DNA from: a virus
Lineage: Duplodnaviria > Caudoviricetes
Reading direction: 5' to 3' (one strand)
IMG/VR virus record: IMGVR_UViG_3300026183_000006
Span: 1-54,659 of that record
DNA length: 54,659 bases
How positions within the stretch are numbered: the stretch's first letter is position 1; the number at the start of each line of letters is the position of its first letter. The position numbers were made by a program, and so were the translations under genes. This document shows positions 10,228 to 53,104 of this stretch, piece after piece. The notes beneath the pieces are model-generated. The model ran no database searches and had not been told where the DNA came from. It was given only the letters and a program-made list of their open reading frames with translations.

Positions 10228-10281
10228 AGACTCTGTCAGGAAAAAACAAAATATACACTGCAAATACAAAATAAAAATACT

Positions 10282-11178: not shown

Positions 11179-11198
11179 AATAATAAATATATACGAAT

Positions 11199-11522: not shown

Positions 11523-11544
11523 ACATAACTAATAATACATAGTT

Positions 11545-11576
11545 AAGGGGGATGGTCTTTTGGCCATCCCCTTTTT
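11545..11576. terminator. Intrinsic terminator between convergent units
   Basis: AGGGGGATGGTC-TTTT-GGCCATCCCCTT followed by a T-run. Confidence 0.85.
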
Positions 11577-15179: not shown

Positions 15180-15617
15180 TTATAAAATTTTTATACCAAA
15201 CGAACGCAATGTTTCTTCAGTCCAAATTTCAAATATCATATCGTGTTTATATGCAAATGCTTTCGCTGCTTCCCATTTAGACTCATTTTTAATGTATGTC
15301 ATTACCTCAGTTAGGTATCTTTTTGTTTTACGAGAAGGTTGTTTAGGAGGTTGTGTTTGTTTTTTAGGCTTTATCTCAATAATGTAAACACTATCCTTTG
15401 TACGTACAAACAAATCTACGAAATAACGATGGATTTTATTATCCGTTTTACAGCGATACGGAATCACTACTTCTTCTGAGTTCCAACCAATTATATCTGG
15501 ATTACTATCCAACCATTTAAACGCCTGTCTTTCCCACAATGAACGATATTTAACATTTTTAAAATCTCCTTCGTATTTCTTAGGATTCTTTACCTTATAA
15601 CGTCCAGAATATGCCAT
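15180..15617 (-). CDS. 4: Head completion protein gp4 (TnsA-like nuclease fold)
   Basis: NPKKYEGD, YRSLWE, WNSEEVVIPY, HRYFVD, IEIKP, NESKWEAA. Confidence 0.93.
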   Translation of the reverse strand: MAYSGRYKVKNPKKYEGDFKNVKYRSLWERQAFKWLDSNPDIIGWNSEEVVIPYRCKTDNKIHRYFVDLFVRTKDSVYIIEIKPKKQTQPPKQPSRKTKRYLTEVMTYIKNESKWEAAKAFAYKHDMIFEIWTEETLRSFGIKIL

Positions 15618-35626: not shown

Positions 35627-36010
35627 ATGTCAATAAGAGCCAAGGTAGTCACACAGAATACAATCAATGCTCAGGTAAATCCTGATAAAAAGATTGTACC
35701 TAAACAAGTTTCTTCTGGTGGTGGAGGTGCCGCATTGACTGATGGTGATGGGATTTCAGATCTAAATTATAATGGAGCTTCTCCAAAAACAATTTCTGTT
35801 GATGATACTGTCCTTAGGACAACTGATAACACGGTTGTAAAAACAACAGGAGATCAAACAATTGAAGGAACAAAAACTTTCACTGACACTGGATTAAATC
35901 AGCTTAGTGACGTAACAATTACAAGCGTCGGAGATGATGATCTAATAAAATATGATGGAAGCTCATCAAAATTTATTAATACTAATATTATGGACGGTGG
36001 AAACTTCTAA
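35627..36010 (+). CDS. Short fibre-like structural protein
   Basis: GDQTIEGTKTF, LNQLSDVTIT, C-terminal DGGNF. Confidence 0.7.
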   Translation: MSIRAKVVTQNTINAQVNPDKKIVPKQVSSGGGGAALTDGDGISDLNYNGASPKTISVDDTVLRTTDNTVVKTTGDQTIEGTKTFTDTGLNQLSDVTITSVGDDDLIKYDGSSSKFINTNIMDGGNF

Positions 36011-36013
36011 ATA

Positions 36014-36021
36014 TATAAATA
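36014..36021 (+). promoter_or_regulatory. T4-type late promoter
   Basis: TATAAATA upstream of ATG 36052. Confidence 0.75.
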
Positions 36022-36051
36022 GAAAAAAGTTAACTTAAATAGAAACATTTC

Positions 36052-37875
36052 ATGGCTAATACAATTAGAATTAAAAGAAGATCATCATCTGGATCTAACG
36101 GTGCACCATCTTCATTGAAGAATGGTGAATTAGCATATAACGAATCAGATAATACTTTGTATTATGGTTACGGTGATGACGGTAGTGGTAATGCAACATC
36201 TATTCCAGCAATTGCTGGTGGAGGAAATTATGTTACACTAACTACTAATCAAACTATTAGCGGTAGTAAGGATTTTACTGGAACATTTTCTTTAAATGGT
36301 ACAGCGGTAACAGCTTCAGCAGCTGAACTTAATCAACTTGATAATGTAACATTAGGAAATGTTGTAACACTAAATGTTGGTATTTCTGATACGAATCTTC
36401 TGCAAGCTGATAGTACAGTAGCCGATAATGACTTTTTAAGAATTAACGGTACAAAGGTTGAAGGACGTTCTGCAGCCGAAGTTAAAGCAGATCTTGACCT
36501 TGAGATTGGTACCGATGTTCAAGCACAAGACGAACTTTTGCAAGATATCGCAGATATTAGCGGCACTGCGACCGGAGCAAACCAATTTATTGTATCTACT
36601 GGTGTTGGTACGTTTCAACTTGAAAGTGGTGCTACAGTACGAACAAGCATTGGCCTTGGAACTACTAATTCACCAACATTTACTGGTTTAACTCTTAGTG
36701 GAGATCTTAATGTTGATGGTGGTGATATAACATCAAATTCTAGCACATTTAATTTCCTTACTGATAATGCTTCTGTTGAAACACTTAATATCGGTGACTC
36801 TGGTGGTAATTTAGCAACAACATTTCCAGGTCTTGTAGATATTGATAGCGGCTTAAATGTAGGTGCTAGTGATGAGTTTAGTGTTGATGCATCTGGAAAT
36901 ATTTCTACTTCAGGAACACTTGCAGCTAGCTTTGCTGCAGCTACTACAGATACAGATGCATTCTTAGTTAGCGATAGTGGTACTGTTAAAACGAGAACAG
37001 GAGCACAGGTTCTTAGCGATATCGGAGCTCAAGCTTCAAATGCTCTTTTAACAGATATTTCAGGTCTTACTATTGCTGATGGTACATTCCTTGTTGGTAA
37101 TGCTTCTGGTGATATTGTAGCTGAAAGTGGTGCTACAGCACGGGCTTCTCTTGGTGTCGATCCATCAGGAACAGACAACTCAACAGATGTTACACTGGCC
37201 GGTACTCCTGATTATATTACTATTAGTGGTCAAGTAATTACAAGAAATCAGATTGATCTTACAACTGATGTAACAGAAATTCTTCCAGCAGCAAATGTTG
37301 GAAACCTTCCTGCATCCAAGATCACAAGTGGAACGTTTGCTGATGATCGAATTAAAGCTACTAACGTTACTCAGCACCAAGATAGTATTTCAAGCGTTGG
37401 TACTCTTGATGATCTCGCTGTTACGGGTGATGTTACTGTTTCAACTGGAGACGTTGTAATTACAGCTGGTAATTTAGTTGGTCCTTCAACATTCTATATT
37501 GATCCTGCTCCTAATGATTCTCCACATAACAATTCCCCAGATAGCCCAGCTCCTACTGGAACGGTTGTTATTCGAGGAGACCTTCAAGTTGATGGTACGA
37601 CAACAACAATTAATTCAACTGAGATTTCTATCAATGACAAGAACATGGTTCTTGCAGACGATCAAACAAGTTATACTGGTATTGATGGTGCTGGTTTATT
37701 GTTTGGTGATACCGGAACGCCCGGCCAGGGCCTTATTGAATTCCAATATGTCAATGCTACAGATAATGCAGACAAGCGTATGGAACTTACTGGTGCAGGT
37801 GGAGCTGGGATTGATATTGGCCTCCATATTTCAGGAGGTCTTTATAACACTGTCGTTGATGGTGGCACGTTCTAA
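36052..37875 (+). CDS. Tail fibre protein
   Basis: N-terminal IRIKR...LKNGELAYN anchor, G/T/D-rich shaft, GDLQVDGTTTTINST, C-terminal DGGTF. Confidence 0.85.
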   Translation: MANTIRIKRRSSSGSNGAPSSLKNGELAYNESDNTLYYGYGDDGSGNATSIPAIAGGGNYVTLTTNQTISGSKDFTGTFSLNGTAVTASAAELNQLDNVTLGNVVTLNVGISDTNLLQADSTVADNDFLRINGTKVEGRSAAEVKADLDLEIGTDVQAQDELLQDIADISGTATGANQFIVSTGVGTFQLESGATVRTSIGLGTTNSPTFTGLTLSGDLNVDGGDITSNSSTFNFLTDNASVETLNIGDSGGNLATTFPGLVDIDSGLNVGASDEFSVDASGNISTSGTLAASFAAATTDTDAFLVSDSGTVKTRTGAQVLSDIGAQASNALLTDISGLTIADGTFLVGNASGDIVAESGATARASLGVDPSGTDNSTDVTLAGTPDYITISGQVITRNQIDLTTDVTEILPAANVGNLPASKITSGTFADDRIKATNVTQHQDSISSVGTLDDLAVTGDVTVSTGDVVITAGNLVGPSTFYIDPAPNDSPHNNSPDSPAPTGTVVIRGDLQVDGTTTTINSTEISINDKNMVLADDQTSYTGIDGAGLLFGDTGTPGQGLIEFQYVNATDNADKRMELTGAGGAGIDIGLHISGGLYNTVVDGGTF

Positions 37876-37895
37876 AAAATACACTATACATAACG

Positions 37896-37983
37896 TATAA
37901 ATAGATATCGTAGGGTGGTAAATCCTACGATATTTTATTATATACTCTGAGCTCTATAGCTCTTCTTTACCGATTCTATAATC
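37896..37983 (+). promoter_or_regulatory. Late promoter plus structured 5' leader
   Basis: TATAAATA 37896-37903; 10-bp stem 37905-37914/37924-37933; second hairpin 37949-37962. Confidence 0.7.
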
Positions 37984-40900
37984 ATGTCAAATACAATTAT
38001 TCTTAAGAAGTCAGGCGTATTAGGAAAAGCGCCTCTTACTTCAAATCTTTCTCTTGGTGAAATCGCAATTAACTATAAAGATGGTTATTTATTTTATCGC
38101 GATAATGAATCATCTCCCGCTGTTCATAAAATTAATGCTGGTGATGCAGATACTGTTGATGGCTTCCATTTGAACCAAAACGTTCTTACGACTTCAACTC
38201 CTACCTTTGATAAGGTACGCCTCACAAATGGAAGTGACGCAAGCCTAAGTAGTACTGATCACGCTTTTCAGGTAGGTGCATCAAGTGGACTGAATCTTAT
38301 TATTGATAACAACGAGATTCTGTCCCGCAGCAATGGTAGTGCTGCCGTATTATATTTTCAGAATGATGGTGGCGATGTTAGGATTGGTTCAAATGGAGGG
38401 ACATCTAGATTCTATGTTCAAGACGGATCCGCGGCCGCTCCAGCAATTACATTTAACAATGATGCTAACACTGGAATTTATAGAATAGCGGCTGATGAGT
38501 TAGGTATAACTTCTGGAGGCACACTAAGAGCGCGATTTAATTCAACTGGTATTGTATCATCTGCAAATGTTTATACTGCTAGTGGTAGTGATTTTAGAAA
38601 TTATGGCGGTATATGGAAAGCTTCTACTGGCTTAACTGGTAACGGATTTCGATTTAGTAACACTGTAGACGGTACAGCTTTAACTATTAGTTCGACTGGT
38701 GATACAGTTGCTTCAGGTTCAGTCACTGCCACATCACTTGTCAAATCAGGGGGAAGCTCTTCAGAATTCCTTAAGGCGGACGGTAGCATAGATAGTAATA
38801 CTTATCTTACTACCAGTTCTGCGTCTTCCACTTACTTACCACTAGCAGGTGGTACGTTGACTGGTGGGTTATCTGGAACAACGGCGTCATTTAGTGGTAA
38901 TGTCGGAATAATTGGGACAGGAAATTTAAGCGTAAGAAATACATCTAGCGCAGGTAGTGGGATACAGTTTTTAGATGCTACTTGGTCAGCGGGTATTGAG
39001 CATAACAACGGGAAGCTATTCTTTAGATCTGGTGGTCAAAATGACAGGATGACTATCCATAGCGGCGGTAACGTTGGTATAGGAACAACGAGTCCTGAGA
39101 CTAAGTTGCATATTCTAACGTCTAACGAAGGCGTGAAGACTACTTATGCAGACGTTGCAATAGAAGCAGTAGATGCACAATTAGATTTGACCAGCAGCTC
39201 TTCGGGTAGTTGGGGATCGGCAATAAATTTTGTTGAAGGAGCAAGCGTTTCCGCTAATACAGATGTCTGGTCTATTGCTCGTCAAACCACAGGAGGGAAT
39301 GGAGATTCTTCATTGCGTTTTAATTTTGGCACTTCTAATCAACATGACAACGCTCACAAGGTTACATTTGCGTCTTCTGGCAACGTTGGTATAGGAACTA
39401 CTTCACCAAACCATTTATTGGAGATTGATGGAGGGACGGAAAACGCATTTATTCAATTAACCACTCCCAATAGTAGATATGGCGGTATAGCTTTTGGTGA
39501 CCCTCAAAGTGCAATAGCGGGTAGAATACAATACTATCATGGAGATGATAGTTTCCAATTTGATACTGATGGTAAGTTTACTTTTGAGGGTGGCAACGTT
39601 GGTATAGGAACAACGAGTCCAAATGCTTTATTAGAATTAAGTAAAAATGGTGGTGGTTCAAGCACAACTTTATTAAATGTAGGAGGCACTGGAAATGGAC
39701 GCATGTTGGTGAGGCACATAGATGGAAAGCTACATACATCTGATGCCACAGATGACCTATATTTAAATTACTTAAGTTCTGGCCATATCTCTATGGTTAA
39801 TGGGGGAGGAAATGTTGGTATAGGAACAACGAGTCCGTCACAAAAACTACATGTAGTAGGAAACACAACAACTACTGGAGTATCGTATACAGATATTGTT
39901 CAGACATATAGTGGTTCATCTATTGACTTTAGACATCAAGATGCATCTGTTGTTATGCGTGTTGATACAGCTAATGCGAGAATTGGTATAGGAACAACGA
40001 GTCCAGCAAAGAAGCTAGAAGTAAATGTTGGAGGCACATCTTCAGATGGGATTTTAGTTGTTGGTAGTTTAAACCCACATATTGAAGCTAAAGATTCTAC
40101 AAACTCTGTAAGAACAGTAATAGCATCAGAAGATAGCCTTGGCAAAGTTGGAACAATTTCCAGCACAGATTTAAAAATTGTCACAAGTAACACTGAACGC
40201 ATACGAGTTGATACCTCTGGCAATGTTGGTATAGGAGACACAACACCAGCTTATAAATTAGACGTTATTGGAACATTAAGAACAACAAGTGCGGCATATT
40301 TTAATAATGATGTAGTAGTTACTAATAACCTTACGTTAACAGGCGCACATAAACCAACGTTCACTACTCCTGACGATACAGTTTACACGCCATCTTATAA
40401 TTGGGTTACAGCGACCCCTTTTAATGCTGCATGGCATGACTTAATAGCCTTTGATAGAAACTATACAACCACTCAAGAGATTTCTACAGATGGGACAAAC
40501 TTCTCTTCTGATACTTTAGAGCTTGGGTTGTTTGATCAGAAAGATAAAACTAAATATGAAGTTGTAGGTAATGGAGAAAGAGCTGTTAGGTGGACTTGGA
40601 CGGGAGTAGCTTATAGTGTGGGGAGATATTTCCATATAGCTGCGGGATATTCTTCTCCTTCACCGTCTTGTACGGTAAAAATTGAAACAAGCTCTGATGG
40701 CTCGACATGGACGGAGATACACTCAAGCTCAGGGATACCCTTCAGCGCAATTAATAGGTTTTATTATGTAGACCCTTATGTTGGTGATGGTGGTGATAAC
40801 TATGTAAGGCTAACGATTGACAAAGGAAATACTGATACTAAGACGATTAATCTTACTAGCATTAAAATGCTAACCCAAAGATTGGCTGATCAAGGTCAAG

Positions 40901-43900
40901 GTAGAGAAGATGAATTACCTTTTTACTATGACAAAAACCAAAATATTGGTATAGGAGTAGCGGCTCCTGACGGCCCACTTCATGTTCAATATAATGATAG
41001 TACAGCTAGATCTTCTGTTATAGACAATACTACAGTAGGTTTAAGAGTAGAGAATACTAATTCTAATGGGGTGTCTCAAATACATTTGAGAGCTGGTGAT
41101 GCTGATGCACATATTTTAGTTGAGGATGTAGGTTCTAATGCTGCTGATATGTTCTTTTCTGTGGATGGAACGGAACCAGCGATGGTAATAAAAAATGATG
41201 GCAACGTTGGTATAGGAACAAATGATCCAGATACAAAGTTGCATATTGCACTTGCAGGTGGAAGCGCTCAGTTAACTCTTGAAAGAACAGGCGGTAGTGC
41301 AGGAAAAGCAGTACTTGCTGGCGCAGCAGAAGGCCTTATAGTGTATGACGATGCTTTTGGACCTAAGATGTATGTGGGTACGTCTGGAACATACAATGGC
41401 AAAGTTGGTATAGGAACAACTAGTCCATCTCAAAAGTTAACTGTTGCAGCTGGTCACATATTATTAGATAATAATCAACAAATCAGATTTAAAGATTCAG
41501 GTGGAACAGAAAGGACTATTGTTCAGCTTTCTTCATCCAATGATTTATTTATTGGAGGTAGTTACGCTGGTGCTTTAAAATTCATGGGTGGAGGTTCCTA
41601 TACGGAACAGATGAGGATTCATGACGACGGGAACGTTGGTATAGGAACAACTAGTCCTAGCAATGCCTTAGAAATTTCTAATGCATCTTTCGCTAATCAA
41701 TTAAGAGTATTAAGACCGCAGAATACAGAGGGTGGTATCGCAGGAATAATTAATATAGCAGGTTTCAATTCAGCTTCCGTAGTTAAAGATTATGCGAGAA
41801 TTGGAGTAATCATAGATGATAATACTAACGCAACAGAAGACGGATCTTTAGTATTACAAACTATTACAAATGGAACTAATACTGAAAAAGTTCGTATTAA
41901 TGCATCTGGTAACGTTGGTATAGGAACAACGAGTCCAGCAGAGAAACTACACGTAGGTGGGGACATCAGAGTAGGTAATGGCGGCTCTAGCGAATATAAT
42001 CACGTTAATTTTACTAGAGCAGGTGGCTCTAACGTAGGAGCTATTGGTTGGCATAGTGACAATAATTTTTATGTAGGAGGTCATCCTTCTTATGGGCCAA
42101 CTGCTGGCAACATAGTAAGAGTTTATGGGTTCGGTAGTGATATACGTTTAGGGGATAACACAAATGGAGATGTATTAACTGTAGACGCTACTAACGGCAA
42201 CGTTGGTATAGGAGATACAACACCATCTTATAAGTTGGATGTTGCTGGTGATATTAGAGCGACTGGAGATCTTAGAGCAGACGATGATATATTTATTGCA
42301 GGTAATACATTAAGGTTCACGAATGATGCGGCATCTGCTTACATTCAATCTGTAGATACACTATACATAGAAGCTGATTCAAATATCAACGATACAGGTG
42401 GTAAGCCGATCATCTTTAGAACTGCCGGCACAACAAAGATGACGATTGCTGGAGATGGTGATGTTACAATCGACAACGACTTAATCGTATCAGGCGACCT
42501 TACAGTCAACGGAACCACGACAACTATCAACAGCACAACTGTTCAAGTTGACGATAAAAACATTGAGCTAGGTAGTGTCGCTTCTCCTACTGACACTACC
42601 GCTGATGGTGGTGGTATCACACTGAAAGGTGCTACAGACAAAACAATCAATTGGGTCAACTCAACTAGCTCTTGGACATCTAATCAAACTTTCTCAGCAC
42701 CGAACTTAACATTAACAAACTTATCAACATATAGTGGATCAGATATCACTGCTTTAATGATTTCTGGTGGTAATATTGTTGGTAAGAGAGCTTTAGGGAC
42801 TGCTGCGTTTAGTGCTACAAGTGATTTCGCTACAGCATCTCATAACCATACTCTTGATTCTCTTAGTAATACGACTATCACTTCGAACACTTCTGGCGAG
42901 ATTCTCAAATGGAATGGTTCAGCATGGATTAACAATACCCTTGCTGAAGCGGGTATCGCTGCGGCAGGTGACGAAAACATCATTGATGGTGCAACATCTA
43001 TTTGGAATGCTGATGGCGATGGCGATGTATTTACTTACAATGATTCAAACCCAACACATAATAGTAAAGGTACTGGAGCTGTAATTTATATTCGTGGTGA
43101 TGGGTCTAATGATGGTGGGCTTGTAAGAGCAGGTATATTCACATCCGATCATGTTTCTACTGCTAATGGTTATTATGTTGGAACCCTTTTGGGGACAACT
43201 AATTCTACGACTACTCAGGTAATCAATAATTCTGGTGAGTGGACAGGGGCTGTAATATCTTCAGCAAAACTTGATGCTGATACAGCTCATCTTTCTGGAA
43301 CTCAAACATTTAGTGGGGCTAAGACATTTTCTGTTAATCCTAAAATATCGCATACTGGTAATATTTCTTTTGCGATGGATAAGAGTGATGCTACTACGAC
43401 TACAAATTTAGTATCTTATGTTAGTTTCCAAGCTGGTGGTTCGGAAGTAGGTTGGTTTGGTTTTGGGAGTAATGGCTCTTCAGATCTTACATTAAGAAAT
43501 ACAAATGGAAAGGTCGTTCTTAATGGTTCGTCTGGGTCTGATTTAGGCACAGTTGTTTCTGGAACATGGAATGGTAGCGTTATTGCTTCTGCTTACTTAG
43601 ATTCAGATACCGCACACCTTTCTGGAACTCAGACGTTTAGCGGGGCTAAGACATTTAGTAGTGCATCAAAGTTTGCTAGTTTATGGAGTAGTTCTACTAT
43701 AGAATCAAACTCTTTTTATGTTCAAAACAGCACAGATGGTTTCGCTTTTGGTGTAGGTACTAGTATTTCAACTTGGTTTAGTTGGGATAATAATGCTGGA
43801 TTAAAAAGAGCAATAGATGTTTGGAATGATGGTAGTAAAATTCTTTTGGGGAATGGTGGCCATGATGTAGAAGTATCAAATGATTTACTTGTATCGCAAT

Positions 43901-44979
43901 ACATATCTCATACTGGTGATACAGATACATTTATTAGATTCCAACCTAATGATGTTAACTTAACTGCTGCGGGGCAAAACCTACTTCGTGTTGATGGAAA
44001 TTCAACACAAAAGACTGTTGTAGTTAACGAGGTTGGGATTGATGCAGATTTTAGAGTTGAGTCTAGTGGAGAAGCTAATGCGCTGTTCGTAAGAGGTTCT
44101 GACGGCAACGTTGGTATAGGAACAACTAATCCTGCTGCTAAACTACACGTATACAACAGCGCAGGAGGGGACGCAACCGACAAAGCGGGGATGTTATCAG
44201 AGGCGGTAATGAAACTGCAACCTCATGCTAGCAATTCAACCAATATGCTATTCGCTCAAGTTAATAGCGGAAATGGTATTGGTATACAGGTCACCAATGG
44301 TCCTGCGACTGCAAACTGGGATATAGCATTGAGTCCCTTTGGAGGCAACGTTGGTATAGGAGATACATCACCATCTTATAAACTAGACGTTGCTGGTACA
44401 TTTAGGTCAACTGGTATAGCAAATTTGAATTCAGGTGCTATTGTTACAAGCGGTGGTATTTCAATTAATAGTGGTGATCTTACTGTTTCATCTGGAGATG
44501 TGGTTATTACTGATGGTGTTTTACAAGGACCTTCGCGATTCATCATTGATCCATCTCCGTATGAATCTCCTTATACTTCTCCACTCAATAATTCTCCACA
44601 ATCAACAGGAGAGATTATTATTCGAGGAGATCTTGAAGTTGAAGGTCACCTTGCAGCTACAACTAAATCGTTTTTAGTAGACAACCCCAGAACTGGAGGA
44701 AAGCTTCAGTATGGTGTGGTTGAGAGTGATGAACATGGTGTATATGTTCGAGGAAAGACAGATCAAAATATGGTTGAACTCCCAGAGGAATGGGAATGGC
44801 TAGTTGATGAAGATAGTGTTACTGTTCAACTTACATCAATTGGTCAAATGCAAAATCTGTTTGTTATTGAACAAAATAACAAATATATAACAGTAGGTGG
44901 ATTAGCTCATAATGGTCAATATAATTATGTAATATATGGAACTCGTAAAGATGTTGATCCACTTGAAAAACATTTATAA
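37984..44979 (+). CDS. Long modular tail fibre (2331 aa) with GNVGIGTT repeats and C-terminal chaperone-like domain
   Basis: IILKKS...GEIAINY anchor; about 14 GNVGIG units; C-terminal TKSFLVDNP...VYVRG...YGTRKDV. Confidence 0.9.
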   Translation: MSNTIILKKSGVLGKAPLTSNLSLGEIAINYKDGYLFYRDNESSPAVHKINAGDADTVDGFHLNQNVLTTSTPTFDKVRLTNGSDASLSSTDHAFQVGASSGLNLIIDNNEILSRSNGSAAVLYFQNDGGDVRIGSNGGTSRFYVQDGSAAAPAITFNNDANTGIYRIAADELGITSGGTLRARFNSTGIVSSANVYTASGSDFRNYGGIWKASTGLTGNGFRFSNTVDGTALTISSTGDTVASGSVTATSLVKSGGSSSEFLKADGSIDSNTYLTTSSASSTYLPLAGGTLTGGLSGTTASFSGNVGIIGTGNLSVRNTSSAGSGIQFLDATWSAGIEHNNGKLFFRSGGQNDRMTIHSGGNVGIGTTSPETKLHILTSNEGVKTTYADVAIEAVDAQLDLTSSSSGSWGSAINFVEGASVSANTDVWSIARQTTGGNGDSSLRFNFGTSNQHDNAHKVTFASSGNVGIGTTSPNHLLEIDGGTENAFIQLTTPNSRYGGIAFGDPQSAIAGRIQYYHGDDSFQFDTDGKFTFEGGNVGIGTTSPNALLELSKNGGGSSTTLLNVGGTGNGRMLVRHIDGKLHTSDATDDLYLNYLSSGHISMVNGGGNVGIGTTSPSQKLHVVGNTTTTGVSYTDIVQTYSGSSIDFRHQDASVVMRVDTANARIGIGTTSPAKKLEVNVGGTSSDGILVVGSLNPHIEAKDSTNSVRTVIASEDSLGKVGTISSTDLKIVTSNTERIRVDTSGNVGIGDTTPAYKLDVIGTLRTTSAAYFNNDVVVTNNLTLTGAHKPTFTTPDDTVYTPSYNWVTATPFNAAWHDLIAFDRNYTTTQEISTDGTNFSSDTLELGLFDQKDKTKYEVVGNGERAVRWTWTGVAYSVGRYFHIAAGYSSPSPSCTVKIETSSDGSTWTEIHSSSGIPFSAINRFYYVDPYVGDGGDNYVRLTIDKGNTDTKTINLTSIKMLTQRLADQGQGREDELPFYYDKNQNIGIGVAAPDGPLHVQYNDSTARSSVIDNTTVGLRVENTNSNGVSQIHLRAGDADAHILVEDVGSNAADMFFSVDGTEPAMVIKNDGNVGIGTNDPDTKLHIALAGGSAQLTLERTGGSAGKAVLAGAAEGLIVYDDAFGPKMYVGTSGTYNGKVGIGTTSPSQKLTVAAGHILLDNNQQIRFKDSGGTERTIVQLSSSNDLFIGGSYAGALKFMGGGSYTEQMRIHDDGNVGIGTTSPSNALEISNASFANQLRVLRPQNTEGGIAGIINIAGFNSASVVKDYARIGVIIDDNTNATEDGSLVLQTITNGTNTEKVRINASGNVGIGTTSPAEKLHVGGDIRVGNGGSSEYNHVNFTRAGGSNVGAIGWHSDNNFYVGGHPSYGPTAGNIVRVYGFGSDIRLGDNTNGDVLTVDATNGNVGIGDTTPSYKLDVAGDIRATGDLRADDDIFIAGNTLRFTNDAASAYIQSVDTLYIEADSNINDTGGKPIIFRTAGTTKMTIAGDGDVTIDNDLIVSGDLTVNGTTTTINSTTVQVDDKNIELGSVASPTDTTADGGGITLKGATDKTINWVNSTSSWTSNQTFSAPNLTLTNLSTYSGSDITALMISGGNIVGKRALGTAAFSATSDFATASHNHTLDSLSNTTITSNTSGEILKWNGSAWINNTLAEAGIAAAGDENIIDGATSIWNADGDGDVFTYNDSNPTHNSKGTGAVIYIRGDGSNDGGLVRAGIFTSDHVSTANGYYVGTLLGTTNSTTTQVINNSGEWTGAVISSAKLDADTAHLSGTQTFSGAKTFSVNPKISHTGNISFAMDKSDATTTTNLVSYVSFQAGGSEVGWFGFGSNGSSDLTLRNTNGKVVLNGSSGSDLGTVVSGTWNGSVIASAYLDSDTAHLSGTQTFSGAKTFSSASKFASLWSSSTIESNSFYVQNSTDGFAFGVGTSISTWFSWDNNAGLKRAIDVWNDGSKILLGNGGHDVEVSNDLLVSQYISHTGDTDTFIRFQPNDVNLTAAGQNLLRVDGNSTQKTVVVNEVGIDADFRVESSGEANALFVRGSDGNVGIGTTNPAAKLHVYNSAGGDATDKAGMLSEAVMKLQPHASNSTNMLFAQVNSGNGIGIQVTNGPATANWDIALSPFGGNVGIGDTSPSYKLDVAGTFRSTGIANLNSGAIVTSGGISINSGDLTVSSGDVVITDGVLQGPSRFIIDPSPYESPYTSPLNNSPQSTGEIIIRGDLEVEGHLAATTKSFLVDNPRTGGKLQYGVVESDEHGVYVRGKTDQNMVELPEEWEWLVDEDSVTVQLTSIGQMQNLFVIEQNNKYITVGGLAHNGQYNYVIYGTRKDVDPLEKHL
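42682..42770 (+). repeat. 89-bp exact direct repeat, copy 1
   Basis: Identical to 53375-53463. Confidence 0.9.
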
Positions 44980-44986
44980 TAAAATT

Positions 44987-45241
44987 ATGTTCGAAAATAG
45001 AAGTTATTTAATCTTTAATATGTCGGAAGTCGATTCGATTGACTTTAATAACGTGCTGGAAACGTCAACGGAAACGCTGCGCTTATCAGTAGATGAAACA
45101 AAATCGTTTGTAAAATGGGAGGGTGAAACTCCATCTTTTGTTTCTGATTTGACAGATACTGAAGGGCCATACTCCCACAGTCAAATCCTTGAGATTCTTT
45201 CTGAAGAAGCGTGGACTCCTACAGGTCAAATGGAAGAATAG
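44987..45241 (+). CDS. Acidic fibre-associated hypothetical protein
   Basis: MFENRSYLIF...VLETSTETLRLSVDETKSFVKWEG; start moved from 44936 to the ATG after the upstream stop. Confidence 0.75.
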   Translation: MFENRSYLIFNMSEVDSIDFNNVLETSTETLRLSVDETKSFVKWEGETPSFVSDLTDTEGPYSHSQILEILSEEAWTPTGQMEE

Positions 45242-45244
45242 ATT

Positions 45245-45964
45245 ATGGCATTATCCCACTCACCAAAAATTGTAACTGATGGTTTGGTTCTCTGCTTAGA
45301 CGCAGGGGATGGTAAGTCGTATTCTGGTAGTGGGACGACTTGGACGGATAGGAGTGGGAATGGCTATAATGGTACTCTAACAAATGGACCTACTTTTGAT
45401 TCTGCAAATGGTGGAGGTTTAACTTTTGATGAAACCAATGATTATATAAACTTTGGTGATGCTACAGATACTAATTTTGGTAGTGATAATTTTACGATAG
45501 AGTGCGTAGCTTACATAGACCCCAATGTTAGTAATAATACTTATAAAGGCATAGTGGTAAAAAAAGGAGCAGGAGCTGCAAATGCTGGCTACGGTATTTA
45601 TTACAATACTTCCCAAGAAAAGTTTTTGTGGTCAACCGCTGACGGGTCTTCCTATTCAGAACGCTTCTCAACAAATACATGGTCAAGTATAGAAAATAGT
45701 TACGCTAACATTGTAATGGTCAGGGATAGTGCAGCAACAAACAATGGTCATTTTTATATAAATGGTGTATATGAATCTTTAGCTTCTACCGCTAGTGTGC
45801 TAGACGTAGACAATACGTCTAATTTGGTAGTTGGTGCATCTAGTACTCTTTATTCTCCATATTACCTTAAAGGTAAGGTTTCACAGGTAAAATTATATAA
45901 TAGAGCTTTAACAGCCTCAGAAGTCCTCCAAAACTATAACGCCACAAAAGGTAGATTCTCATAA
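45245..45964 (+). CDS. LamG/concanavalin A-like lectin protein, paralog 1
   Basis: IVTDGLVLCLDAG, NFTIEC, FYINGV, YNRALTASEVLQNYNATKGRF. Confidence 0.88.
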   Translation: MALSHSPKIVTDGLVLCLDAGDGKSYSGSGTTWTDRSGNGYNGTLTNGPTFDSANGGGLTFDETNDYINFGDATDTNFGSDNFTIECVAYIDPNVSNNTYKGIVVKKGAGAANAGYGIYYNTSQEKFLWSTADGSSYSERFSTNTWSSIENSYANIVMVRDSAATNNGHFYINGVYESLASTASVLDVDNTSNLVVGASSTLYSPYYLKGKVSQVKLYNRALTASEVLQNYNATKGRFS

Positions 45965-45966
45965 TT

Positions 45967-46629
45967 ATGGCTACATCATATTCACCAAAAATAATAACAG
46001 ATGGGTTGGTTCTTTGCTTAGATGCGGGGGATAGTAAGTCGTATGGGGGTAGTGGGACAACTTGGACAGATAGGAGCGGGCAAGGTAATAATGGAACATT
46101 AACGAATGGTCCTACTTTTAATAGTGGTAATGGAGGTTATATTACTTTTGCAGGAGATGATGATCATATACCTTTTACCTGTGATGATTTCGGAACAGAT
46201 AATACTGTAGAGATGTGGGCTAGATGGCATGGTACGGGGAATCGTATGTTTTGTGCTTGGAGTTCTTGTTACGACATTTGGACTATAGATGGTGATTTAG
46301 GTTTTAATACTTGCGGTGGAGATATTTATGGATTTAGTGCATCTAGTCTAGCTAATATTTGGCATCATTTTGTGTTTGTATTTAAACAACAAATACAAGA
46401 TAATAGTATCTATATTAATGGTGTATCTCAAACATTGAGTAAAAAAAGAGGCAATACAAACTTAACCTCAAATAGATCTTTTAGCACAAATTTCCGTCTT
46501 GGGGGTTGGACAGGTGGTAGTTACTATTACGATGGAGATATGGCGATAGCTAAAGTATATGATAGAGCCTTAACAGCAGCAGAAGTCCTTCAAAACTATA
46601 ACGCAACGAAAGGAAGATTCGGACTATGA
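45967..46629 (+). CDS. LamG/concanavalin A-like lectin protein, paralog 2
   Basis: IITDGLVLCLDAG, WHHFVFV, IYINGV, YDRALTAAEVLQNYNATKGRF. Confidence 0.88.
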   Translation: MATSYSPKIITDGLVLCLDAGDSKSYGGSGTTWTDRSGQGNNGTLTNGPTFNSGNGGYITFAGDDDHIPFTCDDFGTDNTVEMWARWHGTGNRMFCAWSSCYDIWTIDGDLGFNTCGGDIYGFSASSLANIWHHFVFVFKQQIQDNSIYINGVSQTLSKKRGNTNLTSNRSFSTNFRLGGWTGGSYYYDGDMAIAKVYDRALTAAEVLQNYNATKGRFGL

Positions 46630-47894
46630 GTGCACATGCAAACCCAGATATTGTTACAAATGGTTTAGTATTCGGCTTTGATACGGGGTATCCTTTTGTA
46701 TCTGAAAGCCATGAAACTTTTAGATATAATAGAGGAGAGCCAACTACTACATTTGATATCGGTACAATGGTACCTACTAGTCTAAATACTTACTTTACTA
46801 GTAATTCTGTTTATCAAAATAATTTGCATGGAACTGCCTGGGATTGGTCCTATTATCCTAATTCTAATATAAGTACTGAAGGAGGAATGGAGTGGGTCCC
46901 TAACTACGAGGGCCCCGGGTTTACAGGAGCCTGGAAAATGAAAAAGAGAGCTGGTGGAAATAGTGAAAGTAATTTTTCAGGAATAGCACCAGGAACTATA
47001 GATAGCAGCAAAACTTATACAGTTTCGGTATGGTGTAAAACTGATCAGGCTACTATGGCTAGAATACATCTCAATACTACCAAAAGTGGTTCAAGCTATT
47101 GGGGTTATGCAAGCGGCTATCATTCAGGAGGTGGAGATTGGGAAAGATTATCTGTAACAATACCTGCAGGAGCAGGAAACACATCTCTCAACACAATAAG
47201 ATGTCAATGTTTGGGTACTAATACTAATGCAGATGCATATTGGAGAGATTATCAAGTGGAAGAAAGAGGCCATGCAACTCCTTTCATATTAGGTGGAACC
47301 AGATCGTCTACAGGTTCACTTATAGATCTAACTGGAACAAATGATATAGATGTATCAGACGTATCATTTGACAGTAATGCACAAATGACTTTTGATGGGA
47401 CGGATGATTATGTTAGTGCTGCATCATTCGATATGGGAACCCCTACTGCGATAACATTAGAATGTATTATTAGATTTAACGGCTCTTTAGATAGTGCTGA
47501 TAGGAAGGTGATGCATTATAATAAATCAGGAGGAACCAACGCCGTTTTTCAACTAAGAAAAGGCTACTCTGCTTCTAGATTAATGTACCAAGCTCATAAC
47601 GGGAGTCAGTGGTATACGATGACAGATACTGACGCTATAGAATCTGATACTTGGGCGCATTTTATAATCACACATTCTGGGACATCTGCTATAATGTATA
47701 AAAATGGAGTTCAGTCAGCAACAGCGACAATGGGTAATTTGGAATGGACGAATGCTAATAATCTCTTAATAGGGTATAGGGCTAACTCTGAATATTGGAA
47801 AGGGGATATTCCTACTATGAAAATATATAACAGAGCCTTAACAGCAGCAGAAGTTCGACAAAACTACAACGCAACAAAATCGAGGTTCGTATAA
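46626..47894 (+). CDS. Lectin protein, paralog 3 (CBM-like insert plus LamG)
   Basis: IVTNGLVFGFD, TYTVSVWCK...WERLSVT...QVEE, FDGTDDYV, YNRALTAAEVRQNYNATKSRF. Confidence 0.85.
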   Translation: MSAHANPDIVTNGLVFGFDTGYPFVSESHETFRYNRGEPTTTFDIGTMVPTSLNTYFTSNSVYQNNLHGTAWDWSYYPNSNISTEGGMEWVPNYEGPGFTGAWKMKKRAGGNSESNFSGIAPGTIDSSKTYTVSVWCKTDQATMARIHLNTTKSGSSYWGYASGYHSGGGDWERLSVTIPAGAGNTSLNTIRCQCLGTNTNADAYWRDYQVEERGHATPFILGGTRSSTGSLIDLTGTNDIDVSDVSFDSNAQMTFDGTDDYVSAASFDMGTPTAITLECIIRFNGSLDSADRKVMHYNKSGGTNAVFQLRKGYSASRLMYQAHNGSQWYTMTDTDAIESDTWAHFIITHSGTSAIMYKNGVQSATATMGNLEWTNANNLLIGYRANSEYWKGDIPTMKIYNRALTAAEVRQNYNATKSRFV

Positions 47895-47913
47895 TTGTAA
47901 TATTCAATAAAAG

Positions 47914-47921
47914 TATAAATA
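47914..47921 (+). promoter_or_regulatory. T4-type late promoter
   Basis: TATAAATA 6 nt before ATG 47928. Confidence 0.8.
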
Positions 47922-47927
47922 ACAAAA

Positions 47928-50900
47928 ATGGCTAATATATTAACACACCCAACAAACGGAGCAATTTATTTTGATGACAGCGCCGCGGGTAGTACAACTA
48001 TACCTGCATTAACTGGAGATGCTGTTAGTTTGAATTACGACGGAAGTGCAGGATTAAACATTACTAGCTATAATACAACTTCAACAGATAGGTTCAGTAT
48101 CGATGGAGAAAGCGGAAGGTTGTTTAGTGTTAATGATAGTTTAACGGGTACAATTTTTAGTGTTAATGATGCTGCAGGATTACCTGTTATTGAAGTTGAA
48201 AGTACTTCATCTACTGATACTATTACAATGGGAACGTACGCTTCCAATGCTTTAGTGGTTGCAGGTGATAGAGTTGGTATCGGAACAGCTTCTCCAAGTT
48301 CTTCATACAAACTCGATGTTGTAGGATCAATTCAAGCATCTTCTAATATTCACGCAAATGGTAATATTTCTGCTACTGGTAATTTTGAATCATTCGGATC
48401 TTTTAGTATTACTACTATTGATGCAGCTACTGGTGACTTAGATAAATTTTTAGTTAGTGATGGAGGAACTATTAAGTATAGGACAGGAGCGCAAGTTCTT
48501 AGCGATATTGGAGCGCTTTCTTCAGAAACAGTCACGAGTTTAGCGTTAACTTCTGGCTCTTTGGTTTATACTGATGAAAATGGCACAGATACTTCAATTT
48601 CCCTTGCAGCTTATTTAGATGAAGATTCTAGATCTATTGCTTCTGGTTCTTTGAATAGCTCTACAGGAATTGTTACATTTACAAGAGACGATTCAACTAC
48701 ATTTACGTTAGATCTTGGGCCTCTCCTTGATGATACTAACCTTGTTACTTCGGTAGCAGGAAAAAGCGGAGTTGTAACTTTAGTCAAAGGTGACGTTGGT
48801 TTAGGTAATGTTACCAATGAAAGTAAGGCTACGATGTTCACTAGCCCTAGCTTTACAGGTGATGTTGTCATTACAGATGACACTTTTCCTTTCATAAAGT
48901 CTTCAACTAATGCAGTAGGTGCTGGAATTAAATTTAGTGATCAAACGTCAGGTTACACGCAACAAGGAACCTTAACATTCCGACATTCCGACTCTCAATC
49001 TTATGGTTCTGGCGCTTCGTTTGAGTTCGCTACAACAGAAGGCACATGTACTATTCTTGCTGATGGTAAGTTGATGTATGGTGAGGGAATCTACTCTAAA
49101 CCTGCATCTGGAACAGGGGCTGGAACAAGAAAAGATTCTAATTGGGATACAGCTTATAGCCACGTTTCAACTACCAACAATCCTCATAGTGTTACGGCAT
49201 CGCAAGTTGGAGCATATACTTCTGGTCAAACGGATACTTTGTTGGCTGGTAAGTCTCCTACTGCTGGTTCAACTAGCCTCACCACCGCTGGGGTATTAAC
49301 TGTTGATCAGTTAAACATGAGAGATGCAGGTGACTATATTACCTTTTATGGAGACGACAGTGCATACCACGCGATTGGAGCTAGAAATTCCGCAGCTGGT
49401 GCTGCTGATGATATCCGAATTAATAGCTACGGAGCTGTTTATGTTAACTTAGATAGTAATAGTAATAATGGTGGAGGGGCGAACTTCCAAATTGGAAGAC
49501 ATGGAGGACAAATTAACAGTGGAACTATTAGTGATTGGCTATTTACAGTTGATGGTGAAAATGGCAACGTTGGTATAGGAACAACTAGTCCATCGCACAA
49601 GTTAGAAGTAGGGTTAACTAGCTCTGTTGCTTTAGCTAATCAGCCCGCAGAACCTTTATTTGTTAGTAATGACGGTAATAGCGTAGATGGTAGAGTATTT
49701 ATATCAGTAAAACATGATGCAGTTAATACTGCTTCAGCTGTAGGAGCTGGATTCAAAATGACAGCGGCAGCGGTTACTAGTGGGACTGCATCTTACGATG
49801 ATTCATTAATATTTTTAAGGTCAGCGGGTACAAGTAATGTTACTGTTCACTCTGCTCCAAGAAACATTCAATTTTACGTAGATAACCACGATACAAATGC
49901 TGGTAGTGGAGCCAATTATAATGATTTAGGTGATCTCGCATTGACGATAGGAGAAGATACTAACGCAACTTTTGCAGGTAAGATAACATCTGGCAATGAT
50001 ATTGTTAATGCAACAGCTGGAGTTTATACTTGGGTTGGAGATACAGATACTTATATACAACGATCTGCTGGCAATGAAATAACTATTAAAACAGGAGCTT
50101 CAAATGCACTTGTTTTGGATTCTAGTCAGAATGCGACATTTGGAGGTAATATTATAGCTAGCGGTGCTGTTTACCCTGCTACAAATGCAGCAGCTAGTTT
50201 GGGTTTAAGTAATAAGCAATGGGCTGGGTTAGACTTAAGTTCTAGTTCTGCTATTACTTGGGGAAATGGAGATGCTGAAATAATAGAAGGAGAGACTAAC
50301 AATTATAGTTTAACATTTAAAACTTATGACGGAAGTAGTAACTCAGCCGCTTTAAGATTAGATGGAGACAATACGGCAACTTTCACAGGTAGTATAATAG
50401 TTTCTGGGACAGTAGATGGTCGTGATGTAGCTGCAGACGGTACTAAACTAGATGGTATTTCAGCTGGTGCTAATAATTACTCACACCCAACACATGCTGG
50501 TGATGATATTAGTATCGATACTGGAGCACTTACGGGTGCGACAGTTATCTCTGACCTTGATTTCAATATTACAACTAATACATTAGGCCACGTTACTGAT
50601 GCCAACGGAACTGTTTCAACACGGACATTAACCGCAGCAAACCTTGGTATCTCTGCACCGAATGCTCCAACAAGTGTAAGCGCATCTATTGTCGGAGAAA
50701 CAATTGATCTTACCTTTAATGCTTCAAGTACATCTAATATTGATGCTTATCTTGTTTATAGTTCTGTTGATGGTAGTGATTATGGATTGATTCAGATTAT
50801 TCCTCCTGATGACTTCTCTGCAACAATGAGTGTTATTGATAGCGCATTTACTGTCACAGGTACTCAAGCATATCGTGTATATGCAATGAAGTATGGCATT

Positions 50901-51197
50901 CTTTCAAGTGCTGGTACAGCGAGTGTTTCATACACAGTAAGTTCTGCGGAACCCACTGATATGAGTGTAGTTAATTTAAATAATGCTTATTTTGTTCAAT
51001 GGAATCCTCCAAGCGCAAATGAGAGATTCGTTAGTGCATACAATGTATACAAACATGAAGCGGCTACAAGCGGATCTCTTTCACGTTCTTCAGCATCATT
51101 AATTTACTCTGGACTTAATACAAACTTTATGTATCAAATTAGCGGAAATAATAATAGCAATTACCATCAATTCTGGGTAGAAACAACAATAGCATAA
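47928..51197 (+). CDS. Tail fibre protein with C-terminal fibronectin-III-like domains
   Basis: VTSVAGKSGVVTL, GNVGIGTTSP, VDGRDVAADGTKLD, APNAPTSVSAS...YRVYA, VQWNPP. Confidence 0.85.
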   Translation: MANILTHPTNGAIYFDDSAAGSTTIPALTGDAVSLNYDGSAGLNITSYNTTSTDRFSIDGESGRLFSVNDSLTGTIFSVNDAAGLPVIEVESTSSTDTITMGTYASNALVVAGDRVGIGTASPSSSYKLDVVGSIQASSNIHANGNISATGNFESFGSFSITTIDAATGDLDKFLVSDGGTIKYRTGAQVLSDIGALSSETVTSLALTSGSLVYTDENGTDTSISLAAYLDEDSRSIASGSLNSSTGIVTFTRDDSTTFTLDLGPLLDDTNLVTSVAGKSGVVTLVKGDVGLGNVTNESKATMFTSPSFTGDVVITDDTFPFIKSSTNAVGAGIKFSDQTSGYTQQGTLTFRHSDSQSYGSGASFEFATTEGTCTILADGKLMYGEGIYSKPASGTGAGTRKDSNWDTAYSHVSTTNNPHSVTASQVGAYTSGQTDTLLAGKSPTAGSTSLTTAGVLTVDQLNMRDAGDYITFYGDDSAYHAIGARNSAAGAADDIRINSYGAVYVNLDSNSNNGGGANFQIGRHGGQINSGTISDWLFTVDGENGNVGIGTTSPSHKLEVGLTSSVALANQPAEPLFVSNDGNSVDGRVFISVKHDAVNTASAVGAGFKMTAAAVTSGTASYDDSLIFLRSAGTSNVTVHSAPRNIQFYVDNHDTNAGSGANYNDLGDLALTIGEDTNATFAGKITSGNDIVNATAGVYTWVGDTDTYIQRSAGNEITIKTGASNALVLDSSQNATFGGNIIASGAVYPATNAAASLGLSNKQWAGLDLSSSSAITWGNGDAEIIEGETNNYSLTFKTYDGSSNSAALRLDGDNTATFTGSIIVSGTVDGRDVAADGTKLDGISAGANNYSHPTHAGDDISIDTGALTGATVISDLDFNITTNTLGHVTDANGTVSTRTLTAANLGISAPNAPTSVSASIVGETIDLTFNASSTSNIDAYLVYSSVDGSDYGLIQIIPPDDFSATMSVIDSAFTVTGTQAYRVYAMKYGILSSAGTASVSYTVSSAEPTDMSVVNLNNAYFVQWNPPSANERFVSAYNVYKHEAATSGSLSRSSASLIYSGLNTNFMYQISGNNNSNYHQFWVETTIA

Positions 51198-51198
51198 T

Positions 51199-51357
51199 AT
51201 GGACGAAGATTTAGAACATTGGGAATGGATCAGAGATCAAAGGACTGAAGATTTAGCTCTTGAAATGGAGAGAGGTGAGGATGATGCGCTTATCAAAATT
51301 TTAAAAGAAAATTTAGAAGAGGCTAGTTTAAAAGTAGAAGAATTGACTAATGAGTAG
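51199..51357 (+). CDS. Small acidic protein (52 aa, not in ORF track)
   Basis: MDEDLEHWEWIRDQRTEDLALEMERGEDDALIKILKENLEEASLKVEELTNE* fills the gap between its neighbours. Confidence 0.7.
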   Translation: MDEDLEHWEWIRDQRTEDLALEMERGEDDALIKILKENLEEASLKVEELTNE

Positions 51358-53092: not shown

Positions 53093-53104
53093 TAAATAGA
53101 TATT

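Follow-up and report, generated by a model that had tools for sequence, protein, structure and literature searches.

The two tail fibre genes carried on a 54,659-nt fragment of an uncultured marine T4-like phage (IMG/VR record IMGVR_UViG_3300026183_000006; Duplodnaviria, Caudoviricetes), a stretch referred to in its entirety as the window, are divided into modules by a short DNA linker of nearly fixed spelling, and it is at this linker that recombination has taken place. Among related phages near-identical modules stand in differing contexts with the breakpoints inside the linker, the insertion or deletion of a single module is bounded by linkers, and the copies of the linker are all direct. 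The linker is likely to act as a recombination point for the swapping of modules in both fibre genes, by way of short homology and the T4-type machinery; homology of this kind would guide the recombination and would also explain why the letters of the linker are fixed.

The cells to which a phage can attach are determined by its tail fibres, and how those of marine phages diversify is little known as the phages are uncultured. In the present case exchange junctions are resolved to the base, in a linker of 17-29 nt that is used between 14 and at least 25 times per gene and that is common to both fibre genes and to many relatives.

A linker of fixed spelling

Fibre gene 1 (37984..44979, + strand) encodes a protein of 2331 aa in which a conserved N-terminal part is followed by 14 linkers bounding 13 modules, then by a long stretch without repeats and finally by a conserved C-terminal domain. 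Fibre gene 2 (47928..51197, + strand) encodes a protein of 1089 aa with one canonical linker and one drifted unit, and is the positional counterpart of the second fibre open reading frame (ORF) in three related loci, L142, L139 and L141. The window holds 15 copies of the 11-mer TTGGTATAGGA, all 15 of them on the + strand, against an expectation of 0.08 copies as judged from 100 shuffles, the maximum in any shuffle being 1. As a first-pass annotation of this DNA had counted, the copies are split between the two fibre genes as 14 and 1, and all are read in a single codon frame, (G/A)TT GGT ATA GGA, where the first codon is GTT in 13 cases and ATT in 2. The peptide around the linker is Gly-Asn-Val-Gly-Ile-Gly-Thr-Thr-Ser-Pro, and codon identity spans about 27-30 nt. 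An extended form of 26 nt, AACGTTGGTATAGGAACAAC(G/T)AGTCC, is present, although not as often as that annotation had it: it occurs at only 5 of the 15 sites, in linkers 1, 3, 10, 11 and 15 (starting at 39070, 39595, 41632, 41911 and 49566). Across the wider gene pool the core of the linker is the 12-mer GTTGGTATAGGA. Over 105 pairs of copies within the window, exact identity extends for 11-29 nt, with a median of 17 nt.

The modules themselves have little in common. In fibre 1 the spacing of the units is 56-104 aa in 11 intervals and 240 and 636 aa in the other two, close to the earlier description of divergent modules of about 50-105 aa with two longer ones, and the modules between linkers align poorly outside the motif. 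When the modules of the window are compared pairwise none reaches 80% nucleotide identity to another.

Why, then, should the codons of the linker be so uniform? In the 36 other ORFs of the window ATA accounts for 22.2% of isoleucine codons and ATT for 58.6%, and GTT, GGT and GGA stand at 47.5%, 46.0% and 35.3% of their respective families, which bears out the claim that the linker uses ATA where the surrounding genes favour ATT. The 16 xGIG units of the window provide an internal control. Within them ATA is found in 15 of 16 cases (background 0.222), GGC in 9 of 13 at Gly(-2) (background 0.116), AAC in 10 of 13 at Asn (background 0.263) and AGT in 8 of 11 (background 0.215), together with GTT in 14/14, GGT in 16/16, GGA in 16/16 and ACA in 11/12. 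The excess of the modal codon runs from Gly(-2) to Ser(+6), conservation falls off gradually outward from the core, and fixation is gone 3-4 codons downstream. There a leucine, Leu(+11), is present in 15 of the 16 units and is thus as conserved as the motif, but it is encoded by TTG (4), TTA (5), CTA (5) and CTT (1), and Lys(+10) is likewise divided between AAG (6) and AAA (5). This scrambling of synonymous sites beside the linker means that the repeat units are old and that constraint on the DNA itself is limited to about 27-30 nt. With the flanking sites randomised and the linker fixed, neither general codon bias, including the local bias that was raised beforehand as a possible explanation, nor recent duplication accounts for the pattern.

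The same picture extends to the gene pool to which the phage belongs. Among 177 distinct units from relatives that were selected by peptide, not by motif, the counts are GTT 153/165, GGT 163/177, ATA 159/177, GGA 153/177, ACA 133/148 and AAC 101/119, and the exact 12-mer is present in 116 of the 177, with Leu(+11) again encoded by six codons (59/36/28/13/10/6). The spelling of the linker is therefore common to the gene pool of these marine T4-like phages. The serine of the Thr-Thr-Ser-Pro sequence was seen to be AGT in nearly all units of L031, L120, L051 and L091, even in unrelated fibres of mixed codon usage (in L031, 11 AGT and 1 AGC of 12), probably because the two serine codon families are two mutational steps apart; this makes Ser(+6) weaker evidence for constraint at the DNA level than the other positions.

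The peptide does not require these codons, as had been supposed at the outset. A codon-agnostic DNA-pattern scan of viral contigs gave 343 matches in at least 120 stretches, and among these listed matches every synonymous choice is used, with a shift that follows GC content. Some fibres are mixed, for instance L031, where 13 units include six listed 12-mers each found once, and also L056 and L046. Others are largely uniform but in a spelling of their own, such as GTC GGT ATC GGG in 9 of the 11 units of L051, GTA GGT ATT GGT in 13 of the 35 of L120 and GTT GGT ATA GGT in 6 of the 14 of L091, and L067 uses the window's spelling in 11 of 13 units. Codon uniformity is thus a trait of some gene pools, with differing spellings, and not of the peptide. 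The 20-nt linker of the window was also observed in L184, L191, L201 and L208, contigs that are named as giant-virus bins.

A divergent unit that the first-pass annotation had pointed out, GTT GGT ATC GGA, is present in fibre 2 at 48267..48296 (+ strand), in the conserved N-terminal part of the protein and not at a module junction. In three comparisons its orthologues spell it otherwise, as GTT GGT ATT GGC in L145 and L013 and as GTA GGT ATA GGA in L144.

There are no inverted repeat pairs of 30 nt or more within 36000-54659, and no Rfam family reaches its gathering score in 37500-51300. A hairpin within the linker was considered, since the canonical form has 5-bp dyad arms and other spellings seemed to retain them, and was rejected, as the folds are no better than shuffles (z -0.60 to +0.05). 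Third-base complementarity between the Val and first Thr codons, at 99/228, equals the within-locus shuffle (99.5), and non-pairing controls have an equal excess over a global shuffle. When one unit per locus is taken the odds ratio is 2.1 (median p 0.26), and that of a non-pairing control is 2.8.

Exchange, gain and loss of modules

Relatives were found with fibre 1 peptides and not with the motif, giving 8 viral and 31 metagenome loci, and breakpoints were located by BLASTN of the window against these peptide-selected and earlier loci. The collinearity of fibre 1 with any peptide-selected relative is partial at most, and what is shared are single modules, which match at 83-99.6% nucleotide identity and end at linkers. 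Further loci came from a scan with a 20-mer of the linker; these were picked by motif and so were kept out of the statistical test described below.

Linker 1 lies at 39067..39096 (the 11-mer starting at 39074) and linker 2 at 39379..39408 (39386), where the module m2 begins and where a match to L196, from the 20-mer scan, covers 39376-39621 at 87.4%. Linker 3 (39592..39621; 39599) forms the left breakpoint of m3 in L139, L142 and L067, and linker 4 (39808..39837; 39815) its right breakpoint, with matches of 99.6% to L139 (39591-39836), 96.2% to L142 (39592-39856) and 91.1% to L067 (39591-39861). Linker 4 is also the left breakpoint of m4, which matches L142 at 97.5% (39808-40004) and, among the loci from the 20-mer scan, L196, L231 and L216 at 92.0%, 89.7% and 89.6%; its right breakpoint is linker 5 (39976..40005; 39983), a variant with ATT as first codon. 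The 240-aa module m6 runs from linker 6 (40219..40248; 40226) to linker 7 (40939..40968; 40946), which reads Gln-Asn-Ile-Gly-Ile-Gly and in which the matches stop at 40956-40962; it is found in L137 at 92.8% (40220-40958), in L011 at 85.4% (40183-40962) and in L009 at 84.7% (40219-40956). Beyond linker 8 (41200..41229; 41207), linker 9 (41398..41427; 41405) provides the left breakpoint of m9 (L185, 83.0%) and linker 10 (41629..41658; 41636) that of m10 (L206, 95.7%; L175, 93.2%), all three loci being from the 20-mer scan. Linker 11 (41908..41937; 41915) and linker 12 (42196..42225; 42203) are the left and right breakpoints of m11, which matches L142 at 98.4% (41893-42213), L014 at 98.8% (41910-42081, cut by the end of the locus) and, from the 20-mer scan, L256 at 83.5%. 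A match to L141 (42202-42677) begins at linker 12, and matches to L010 (43557-44121) and L139 (43557-44144) terminate at linker 13 (44104..44133; 44111). Here m13 begins, shared with L158 at 85.4% (44100-44360), and its right breakpoint is linker 14 (44344..44373; 44351), after which comes the stretch running up to the conserved C-terminal domain. Of the 13 internal modules of fibre 1, 8 thereby have linker-bounded matches: m2, m3, m4, m6, m9, m10, m11 and m13. In fibre 2 the matches to L139, L141 and L159 stop at linker 15 (49563..49592; 49570), and those to L141 (98.3%) and L154 start there.

Whether breakpoints fall at random with respect to the linker had been set beforehand as a check that might refute the proposal. 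Matches were moved inside the fibre genes with their lengths kept, in 2000 shifts, and an end was counted when it lay within 25 nt of a linker centre. At 90% identity or more, 12 of 30 ends are at linkers against a null of 2.6 (sd 1.5, largest 9), and at 80% or more, 22 of 84 against 7.7 (sd 2.8, largest 18). The ends of high-identity matches therefore cluster at linkers. At the level of single bases, identity rises from background to 99-100% inside a linker and drops inside the next. For instance, window 39591-39836 is 99.6% identical to L139 over 246 nt, and unrelated sequence starts inside both of the bounding linkers; m11 and m4 have the same base-level edges against L142. The core of the original proposal, that identity at the DNA level is tied to repeated in-frame recombination, is supported by breakpoints that are non-random and that lie within the linker to the base.

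The contexts into which modules have moved are varied. The module m3, which is in fibre 1 in the window, is in the fibre 2-position ORF in L139 (9726-9971, within ORF 8917-10842) and again in L142 (9401-9665, within ORF 8351-13141). In L142 the window's m11 is joined straight to its m4, the two matches overlapping in a linker at 915-932 of that locus, and in L196 m4 lies upstream of m2. Relatives differ from one another in the same way, with module clusters 22-23-24 in L141 against 23-24..22 in L142. Twenty-two pairs of shared internal modules (84-100% identity; clusters 2, 9-15 and 18-24, leaving out clusters of N- and C-terminal parts and duplicate contigs) were used to compare flanks. In 18 of the 22 both 120-nt flanks score 0.50-0.62, for which the background by the same scoring, from 282 random pairs, has a mean of 0.574 and a 95th percentile of 0.62; the remainder comprise one pair with flanks of 0.68 and 0.58 and three with one shared flank only. 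Among 554 internal modules from 128 fibre ORFs, 20 pairs are at least 85% identical over 85% of their length, and 15 of these 20 have no shared examinable neighbour.

Modules are also gained and lost. Where fibre 2 of the window has a single linker, linker 15, that of L141 has the linker decapeptide, a 77-aa module and the linker decapeptide again. The extra module is bounded by two 26-nt copies of the linker, and the sequence to its left is 81% and to its right 98.3% identical to the window. The number of linkers in syntenic genes varies accordingly: for fibre 1 there are 14 in the window, 6 in L139, 11 in L141, at least 19 in L158 and at least 25 in L137, and for fibre 2 there are 2 in the window and at least 16 in L142. 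Modules are thus added, lost and swapped, as had been suggested, in other orders, into the other fibre gene and as one-module insertions or deletions between linkers.

Logan contigs from sequencing runs of other studies span linkers 6-9 in the arrangement of the window (X4, 40088-41661; X7, 40207-41221). Of the 24 loose ends of Logan contigs among those listed (there are 375 more), 10 lie within 25 nt of a linker, which is a hint only. Joints between linkers in such contigs were not counted as deletion variants, as their sides are only 20-34 nt, about the length of the linker itself. In run X1 the summed depth was observed to be 52.5 in the bin 39344-39804 (m3) and 63.3 in the bin 41649-42109 (m11), with neighbours at about 24; this excess would fit the presence of m3 and m11 in further co-occurring genomes, but such depth is no copy number and was not used.

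Fibre architecture and the route of exchange

Fibre 1 belongs to tail fibre families of PHROG (phrog_18345, 2.5e-40; phrog_9942, 5.8e-30), and no Pfam family was obtained for fibre 1 or fibre 2, nor a PHROG family for fibre 2. Against an annotated phage collection the fibre gene gives short matches only (1-2% of the query). The two ends of fibre 1 are conserved. On the N-terminal side identity to L138 is 94.6% over 36001-38721, which takes in the upstream ORF as well as the beginning of fibre 1; the domain at the C-terminal end (cluster 1) is 78-99% identical among 11 loci. The last 105 aa match only PHROGs of unknown function, and Pfam places no S74 C-terminal chaperone-protease domain in the fibres. 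The last 115 aa or so (44628-44979), which match phrog_17490 and phrog_28536, both annotated as of unknown function, were seen in over 20 loci with a nucleotide identity of 70-85%, irrespective of the sequence before them, and a 42-nt piece just upstream of this end (44605-44646) recurs at 37555-37596, near the end of the upstream 607-aa ORF.

Within fibre 1, further match ends away from xGIG units were observed at 38527, 38714-38730, 38861-38865, 42456, 42677-42682, 43557 and 44628-44644. The segments 38527-38730 and 42456-42677 are adjacent and in reverse order in L139, L142, L151, L152 and L150, and are 3.7 kb apart in the window. Other types of junction thus exist in fibre 1.

Among solved structures fibre 1 matches those of Bdellovibrio fibres, PDB 8OND (Bd2133; E 1e-06) and 8OML (3.4e-04), in alignments that include the motif. 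These fibres are described as trimers of intertwined beta-helix domains, with capping loops of a related consensus at the domain edges (Caulton et al. 2024, PMC10769870), and the motif of the window, judged by its sequence, may correspond to such a capping loop. A three-copy fold of residues 590-770 has a score of 0.95, the best of three controls having 0.00, with contacts that agree to at least 98% between runs and a pLDDT of at least 94. This score was calibrated on two copies, and in that setting 21 of 30 proteins solved as one-chain pairs and 0 of 23 single chains came up to the mark; the three-copy score may reflect likeness to solved complexes and is no proof of a homotrimer. If the modules are indeed self-contained trimeric beta-helices that start at the loop, a join at the loop would give a well-formed chimera in any order.

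How might the exchange proceed? Both fibre genes would be chains of self-contained trimeric beta-helix modules, each starting with the linker loop motif, and the linker would be the only DNA homology between otherwise unrelated modules. Copies of the linker would recombine between co-infecting relatives, between the two fibre genes or within one gene, and in this process whole modules would be replaced, inserted or deleted in frame. Exchanges and heteroduplex repair inside the linker would keep it uniform, such that canonical copies continue to recombine and spread and drifted copies become locked. The variation of the drifted unit of fibre 2, which is not at a junction, suggests that drifted copies do stop exchanging. 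The enzymes would be those of the phage's own T4-type homologous recombination machinery and not site-specific ones, the uniformity of the linker may be cause or consequence of the recombination, or both, and the exchange would be expected to matter for adsorption, host range or fibre length. The first-pass annotation had spoken of a candidate fibre-shuffling system; no dedicated one is needed, and nothing points to a site-specific enzyme.

Several observations weigh against this account. The median identity of 17 nt between copies is at or below the lengths required for efficient homologous recombination. A good part of the outcome may be due to rare events combined with selection for in-frame products that are viable. 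UvsX/UvsY and gp46/47 are not in the window, which represents about 32% of the genome. Many breakpoints lie away from linkers (38714-38730, 42456/42677, 43557, 44628-44644 and gene boundaries), which means that the linker is not the sole junction, and at the loosest threshold of the shift test (at least 70% identity and 60 nt) 30 of 187 ends fall at linkers against a null of 17.1 (sd 3.9, largest 34), an excess not clearly beyond chance. All the loci, the window included, are short-read metagenome assemblies. With both terminal parts of the fibre conserved, the swapped modules may be shaft units that set length or side-binding and not receptor-binding tips. Finally, a second pool with its own spelling, or dialect, was not demonstrated: the 20-mer of L051 occurs in 95 viral stretches, nearly always as a single copy, so that the idea of dialects rests only on uniformity within the genes of a few loci. 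The window's own 20-mer occurs in 101 viral stretches, in many of them as multiple copies.

A rather doubtful extension of homology-driven exchange treats the linker as a recombination signal under active maintenance: throughout a marine myovirus population its letters would stay exact, since a lineage with an intact linker gains access to a common stock of modules, and dialects of spelling would limit the partners for exchange; that a dedicated enzyme acts on such a signal is less likely again. More distinct rivals are all improbable to different degrees. Illegitimate or microhomology joins might form anywhere in the fibre genes, with only those at loops viable, in which case the identity of the linker would have another cause and would not guide recombination. 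The shortness of the identity between copies (median 17 nt) and the breakpoints in other places speak for such a filter, as does the expectation that in-frame loop joins should be tolerated if modules fold alone. This explanation is nevertheless unlikely, for it leaves unexplained a synonymous fixation confined to the linker across 177 units, the drifted non-junction unit varies among orthologues, and the newest exchanges break within the identical letters and not merely nearby. A shade less likely is translational selection, whereby non-preferred codons would slow the ribosome at the loops to allow the trimer to fold and recombination would be incidental. Codons in the minority in the background are indeed modal in the linker (ATA 0.222, GGC 0.116, AAC 0.263, ACG 0.104), but its GTT, GGT and ACA are preferred codons, the non-junction unit drifts, and fibres with the same peptide use other codon sets (L051, L120) or mixtures (L031, L056).

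A site-specific recombinase or nuclease encoded outside the window, acting in a shufflon-like or homing-like manner, is very unlikely. A sharply conserved core of 11-12 nt and a weak dyad in the canonical linker (5-bp arms, 9-nt centre) could be read as its target, and only about one third of the genome is in view. Yet compensatory changes in the dyad do not exceed those of controls, the 15 copies share one orientation and 36000-54659 contains no inverted repeat of at least 30 nt, conservation fades progressively away from the core, as for homology and unlike a fixed site, and a nuclease that cut its own genome 15 times would be costly. A scan of 33 ORF products from the window, at about 32% of the genome, gave no recombinase, invertase or reverse transcriptase, so the search for a site-specific recombinase that had been proposed came back empty. 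Even more improbable is a fusion of different phages by assemblers at the repeated linker. Short-read assembly underlies every locus, the window included, and Logan contigs often stop at linkers, but the longest linker identity in the window is 29 nt, which is below the word sizes that assemblers use for final contigs, the same module is found in different contexts in many separate assemblies, and independent runs bridge linkers 6-9 as in the window; a chimera formed at a shared module of 200-700 nt would itself need that module to be in two contexts. Least credible of all is a recent tandem amplification of one module followed by fast divergence outside the motif. The units do have a common origin and a tandem layout, but the Leu and Lys codons beside the linker are randomised, no two modules of the window reach 80% identity, and the modules are far closer to those of other phages than to each other.

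Gene neighbourhood and known systems

The window is a fragment of a virus record estimated to be 32% complete, with a GC content of 36.7%. T4-type genes within it include those for gp59, gp32, lysozyme, baseplate proteins, the gp5 OB domain and baseplate wedge PHROGs, and the T4-type family matches are PF12322, PF11246, PF06714, PF08993, PF08804, phrog_219 and phrog_438. The gp59 helicase loader (9617-10210, + strand; PF08993, 9.4e-21) and the gp32 single-strand-binding protein (10282-11178, + strand; PF08804, 8.2e-40) are parts of the T4-type recombination-dependent replication apparatus. The gp6 homologue is at best 37% identical to that of the Methylophilales phage Melnitz, and 35-36% identical to those of pelagimyophages. 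A protein of 1877 aa (phrog_358) precedes the fibres. In pelagimyophages the host recognition cluster is placed downstream of VrlC (PMC7029224), and the place of the fibres after the 1877-aa protein resembles the site of that cluster, by position only.

Between the two fibre genes lie three tandem concanavalin-like lectin paralogues (45245-47894; Laminin_G_3), and the order of fibre 1, three lectin-like genes and fibre 2 is kept in L142, L139 and L141. Each of the paralogues was seen to have a conserved 97-nt stretch at its C-terminus, and matches as well as loose ends of contigs stop in this region at 45242-45245, 45442-45448, 46655-46672 and 47411-47417, which are probably further exchange points of candidate adhesins. 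Elsewhere, among the baseplate genes, a 145-aa ORF (15180-15617, - strand) has a TnsA-like endonuclease N-terminal domain (PF08722, 1.1e-16) and may encode a nuclease of the homing type, for which no connection with the linkers was observed. A 300-nt repeat with 82% identity is shared by fibre 1 (42508-42807) and an open-ended ORF at 53105-54658 (53201-53500). Its 55 mismatches are of all types, with 36 at third codon positions and 12 from A, and it was therefore rejected as the repeat pair of a diversity-generating retroelement (DGR) and taken as an ordinary paralogous shared segment.

With this linker the general statement that fibres are mosaics becomes a testable rule, namely that modules move as cassettes between identical connectors. 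The linker can serve as a marker with which recombining phage populations are traced in metagenomes, and it is a caution for assemblers and for gene-sharing networks, in that modules are shared and genes are not. It also offers a natural design for fibres of chosen length and composition in laboratory phage-bacterium systems. With the linker fixed and the neighbouring conserved codons scrambled, it is a remarkably clear example of concerted evolution limited to a handful of codons.

How does this arrangement compare with the known means of varying a fibre? The Gin, Cin and Min invertases and the Rci shufflon recombinase act on inverted sites through a site-specific recombinase to switch fibre or pilus tips within a genome. 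In both cases short repeats in a tip gene serve to recombine alternative C-terminal segments, but in the window the sites are all direct, no recombinase is in view and the exchange is between genomes. DGRs likewise bring about targeted diversification of phage receptor-binding proteins, but the window yielded neither a reverse transcriptase among the ORF products scanned nor a template/variable repeat pair of this type, the 300-nt repeat being its only long one. The earlier remark that no invertase or DGR is in view thus agrees with the scans of the window.

Fragment shuffling at the level of the protein is documented: Smug et al. (2023, PMC10684548) describe phage receptor-binding proteins, and fibres especially, as still exchanging pieces of protein, in line with Botstein's modular theory (cited in PMC3157838). 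These are protein-level surveys, however, and the words 'breakpoint', 'linker' and 'microhomology' have no occurrence in the main text of PMC10684548 as available, whereas the window provides a defined nucleotide junction. The fibres of Bdellovibrio and of the S74 type share with those of the window a sequence match that runs through the motif, their trimeric beta-helix domains with capping loops may have a counterpart in the window, and 'tip swapping' is reported in the evolution of the Bdellovibrio fibres (PMC10769870). Theirs is, however, a bacterial surface protein and not a phage gene, the fibres of the window have no S74 domain, and a DNA-level linker or module-by-module exchange was not found described in the available part of PMC10769870. 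Literature searches for the strings gnvgig, nvgigt, vgigttsp and gnvgigt returned no paper, and none that describes the linker.

The closest precedent is the motif-mediated recombination of fibre and adhesin genes in T-even phages, whose motifs are named 'His boxes'. Trojet et al. (2011, PMC3157838), who cite Tetart et al. 1996 and 1998, describe recombination in the distal tail-fibre and adhesin genes of these phages, at conserved motifs or close to them. The likeness is that the phages are T4-type, short conserved motifs separate variable segments of fibre or adhesin, breakpoints lie in or near the motifs and the outcome is chimeric fibres drawn from a library shared across the population. 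The differences lie in the motif and the protein, which are distinct in the window and have no match to gp37/gp38 families in Pfam or PHROG, in the 14 to at least 25 linkers per fibre 1-type gene, and in the swapping, gain and loss of whole shaft modules, also between two fibre genes. To these can be added the fixation of the synonymous sites of the linker across the gene pool, which was not found reported for T-even phages in the part of the literature available. Recombination of fibres through motifs, as in the T-even phages, and a general shuffling of fragments in receptor-binding proteins are thus already known from these sources. What is new is the number of linkers per gene, the exchange of single modules as cassettes, also between genes, their gain and loss between direct copies, and the finding that synonymous fixation across a gene pool is restricted to the linker.

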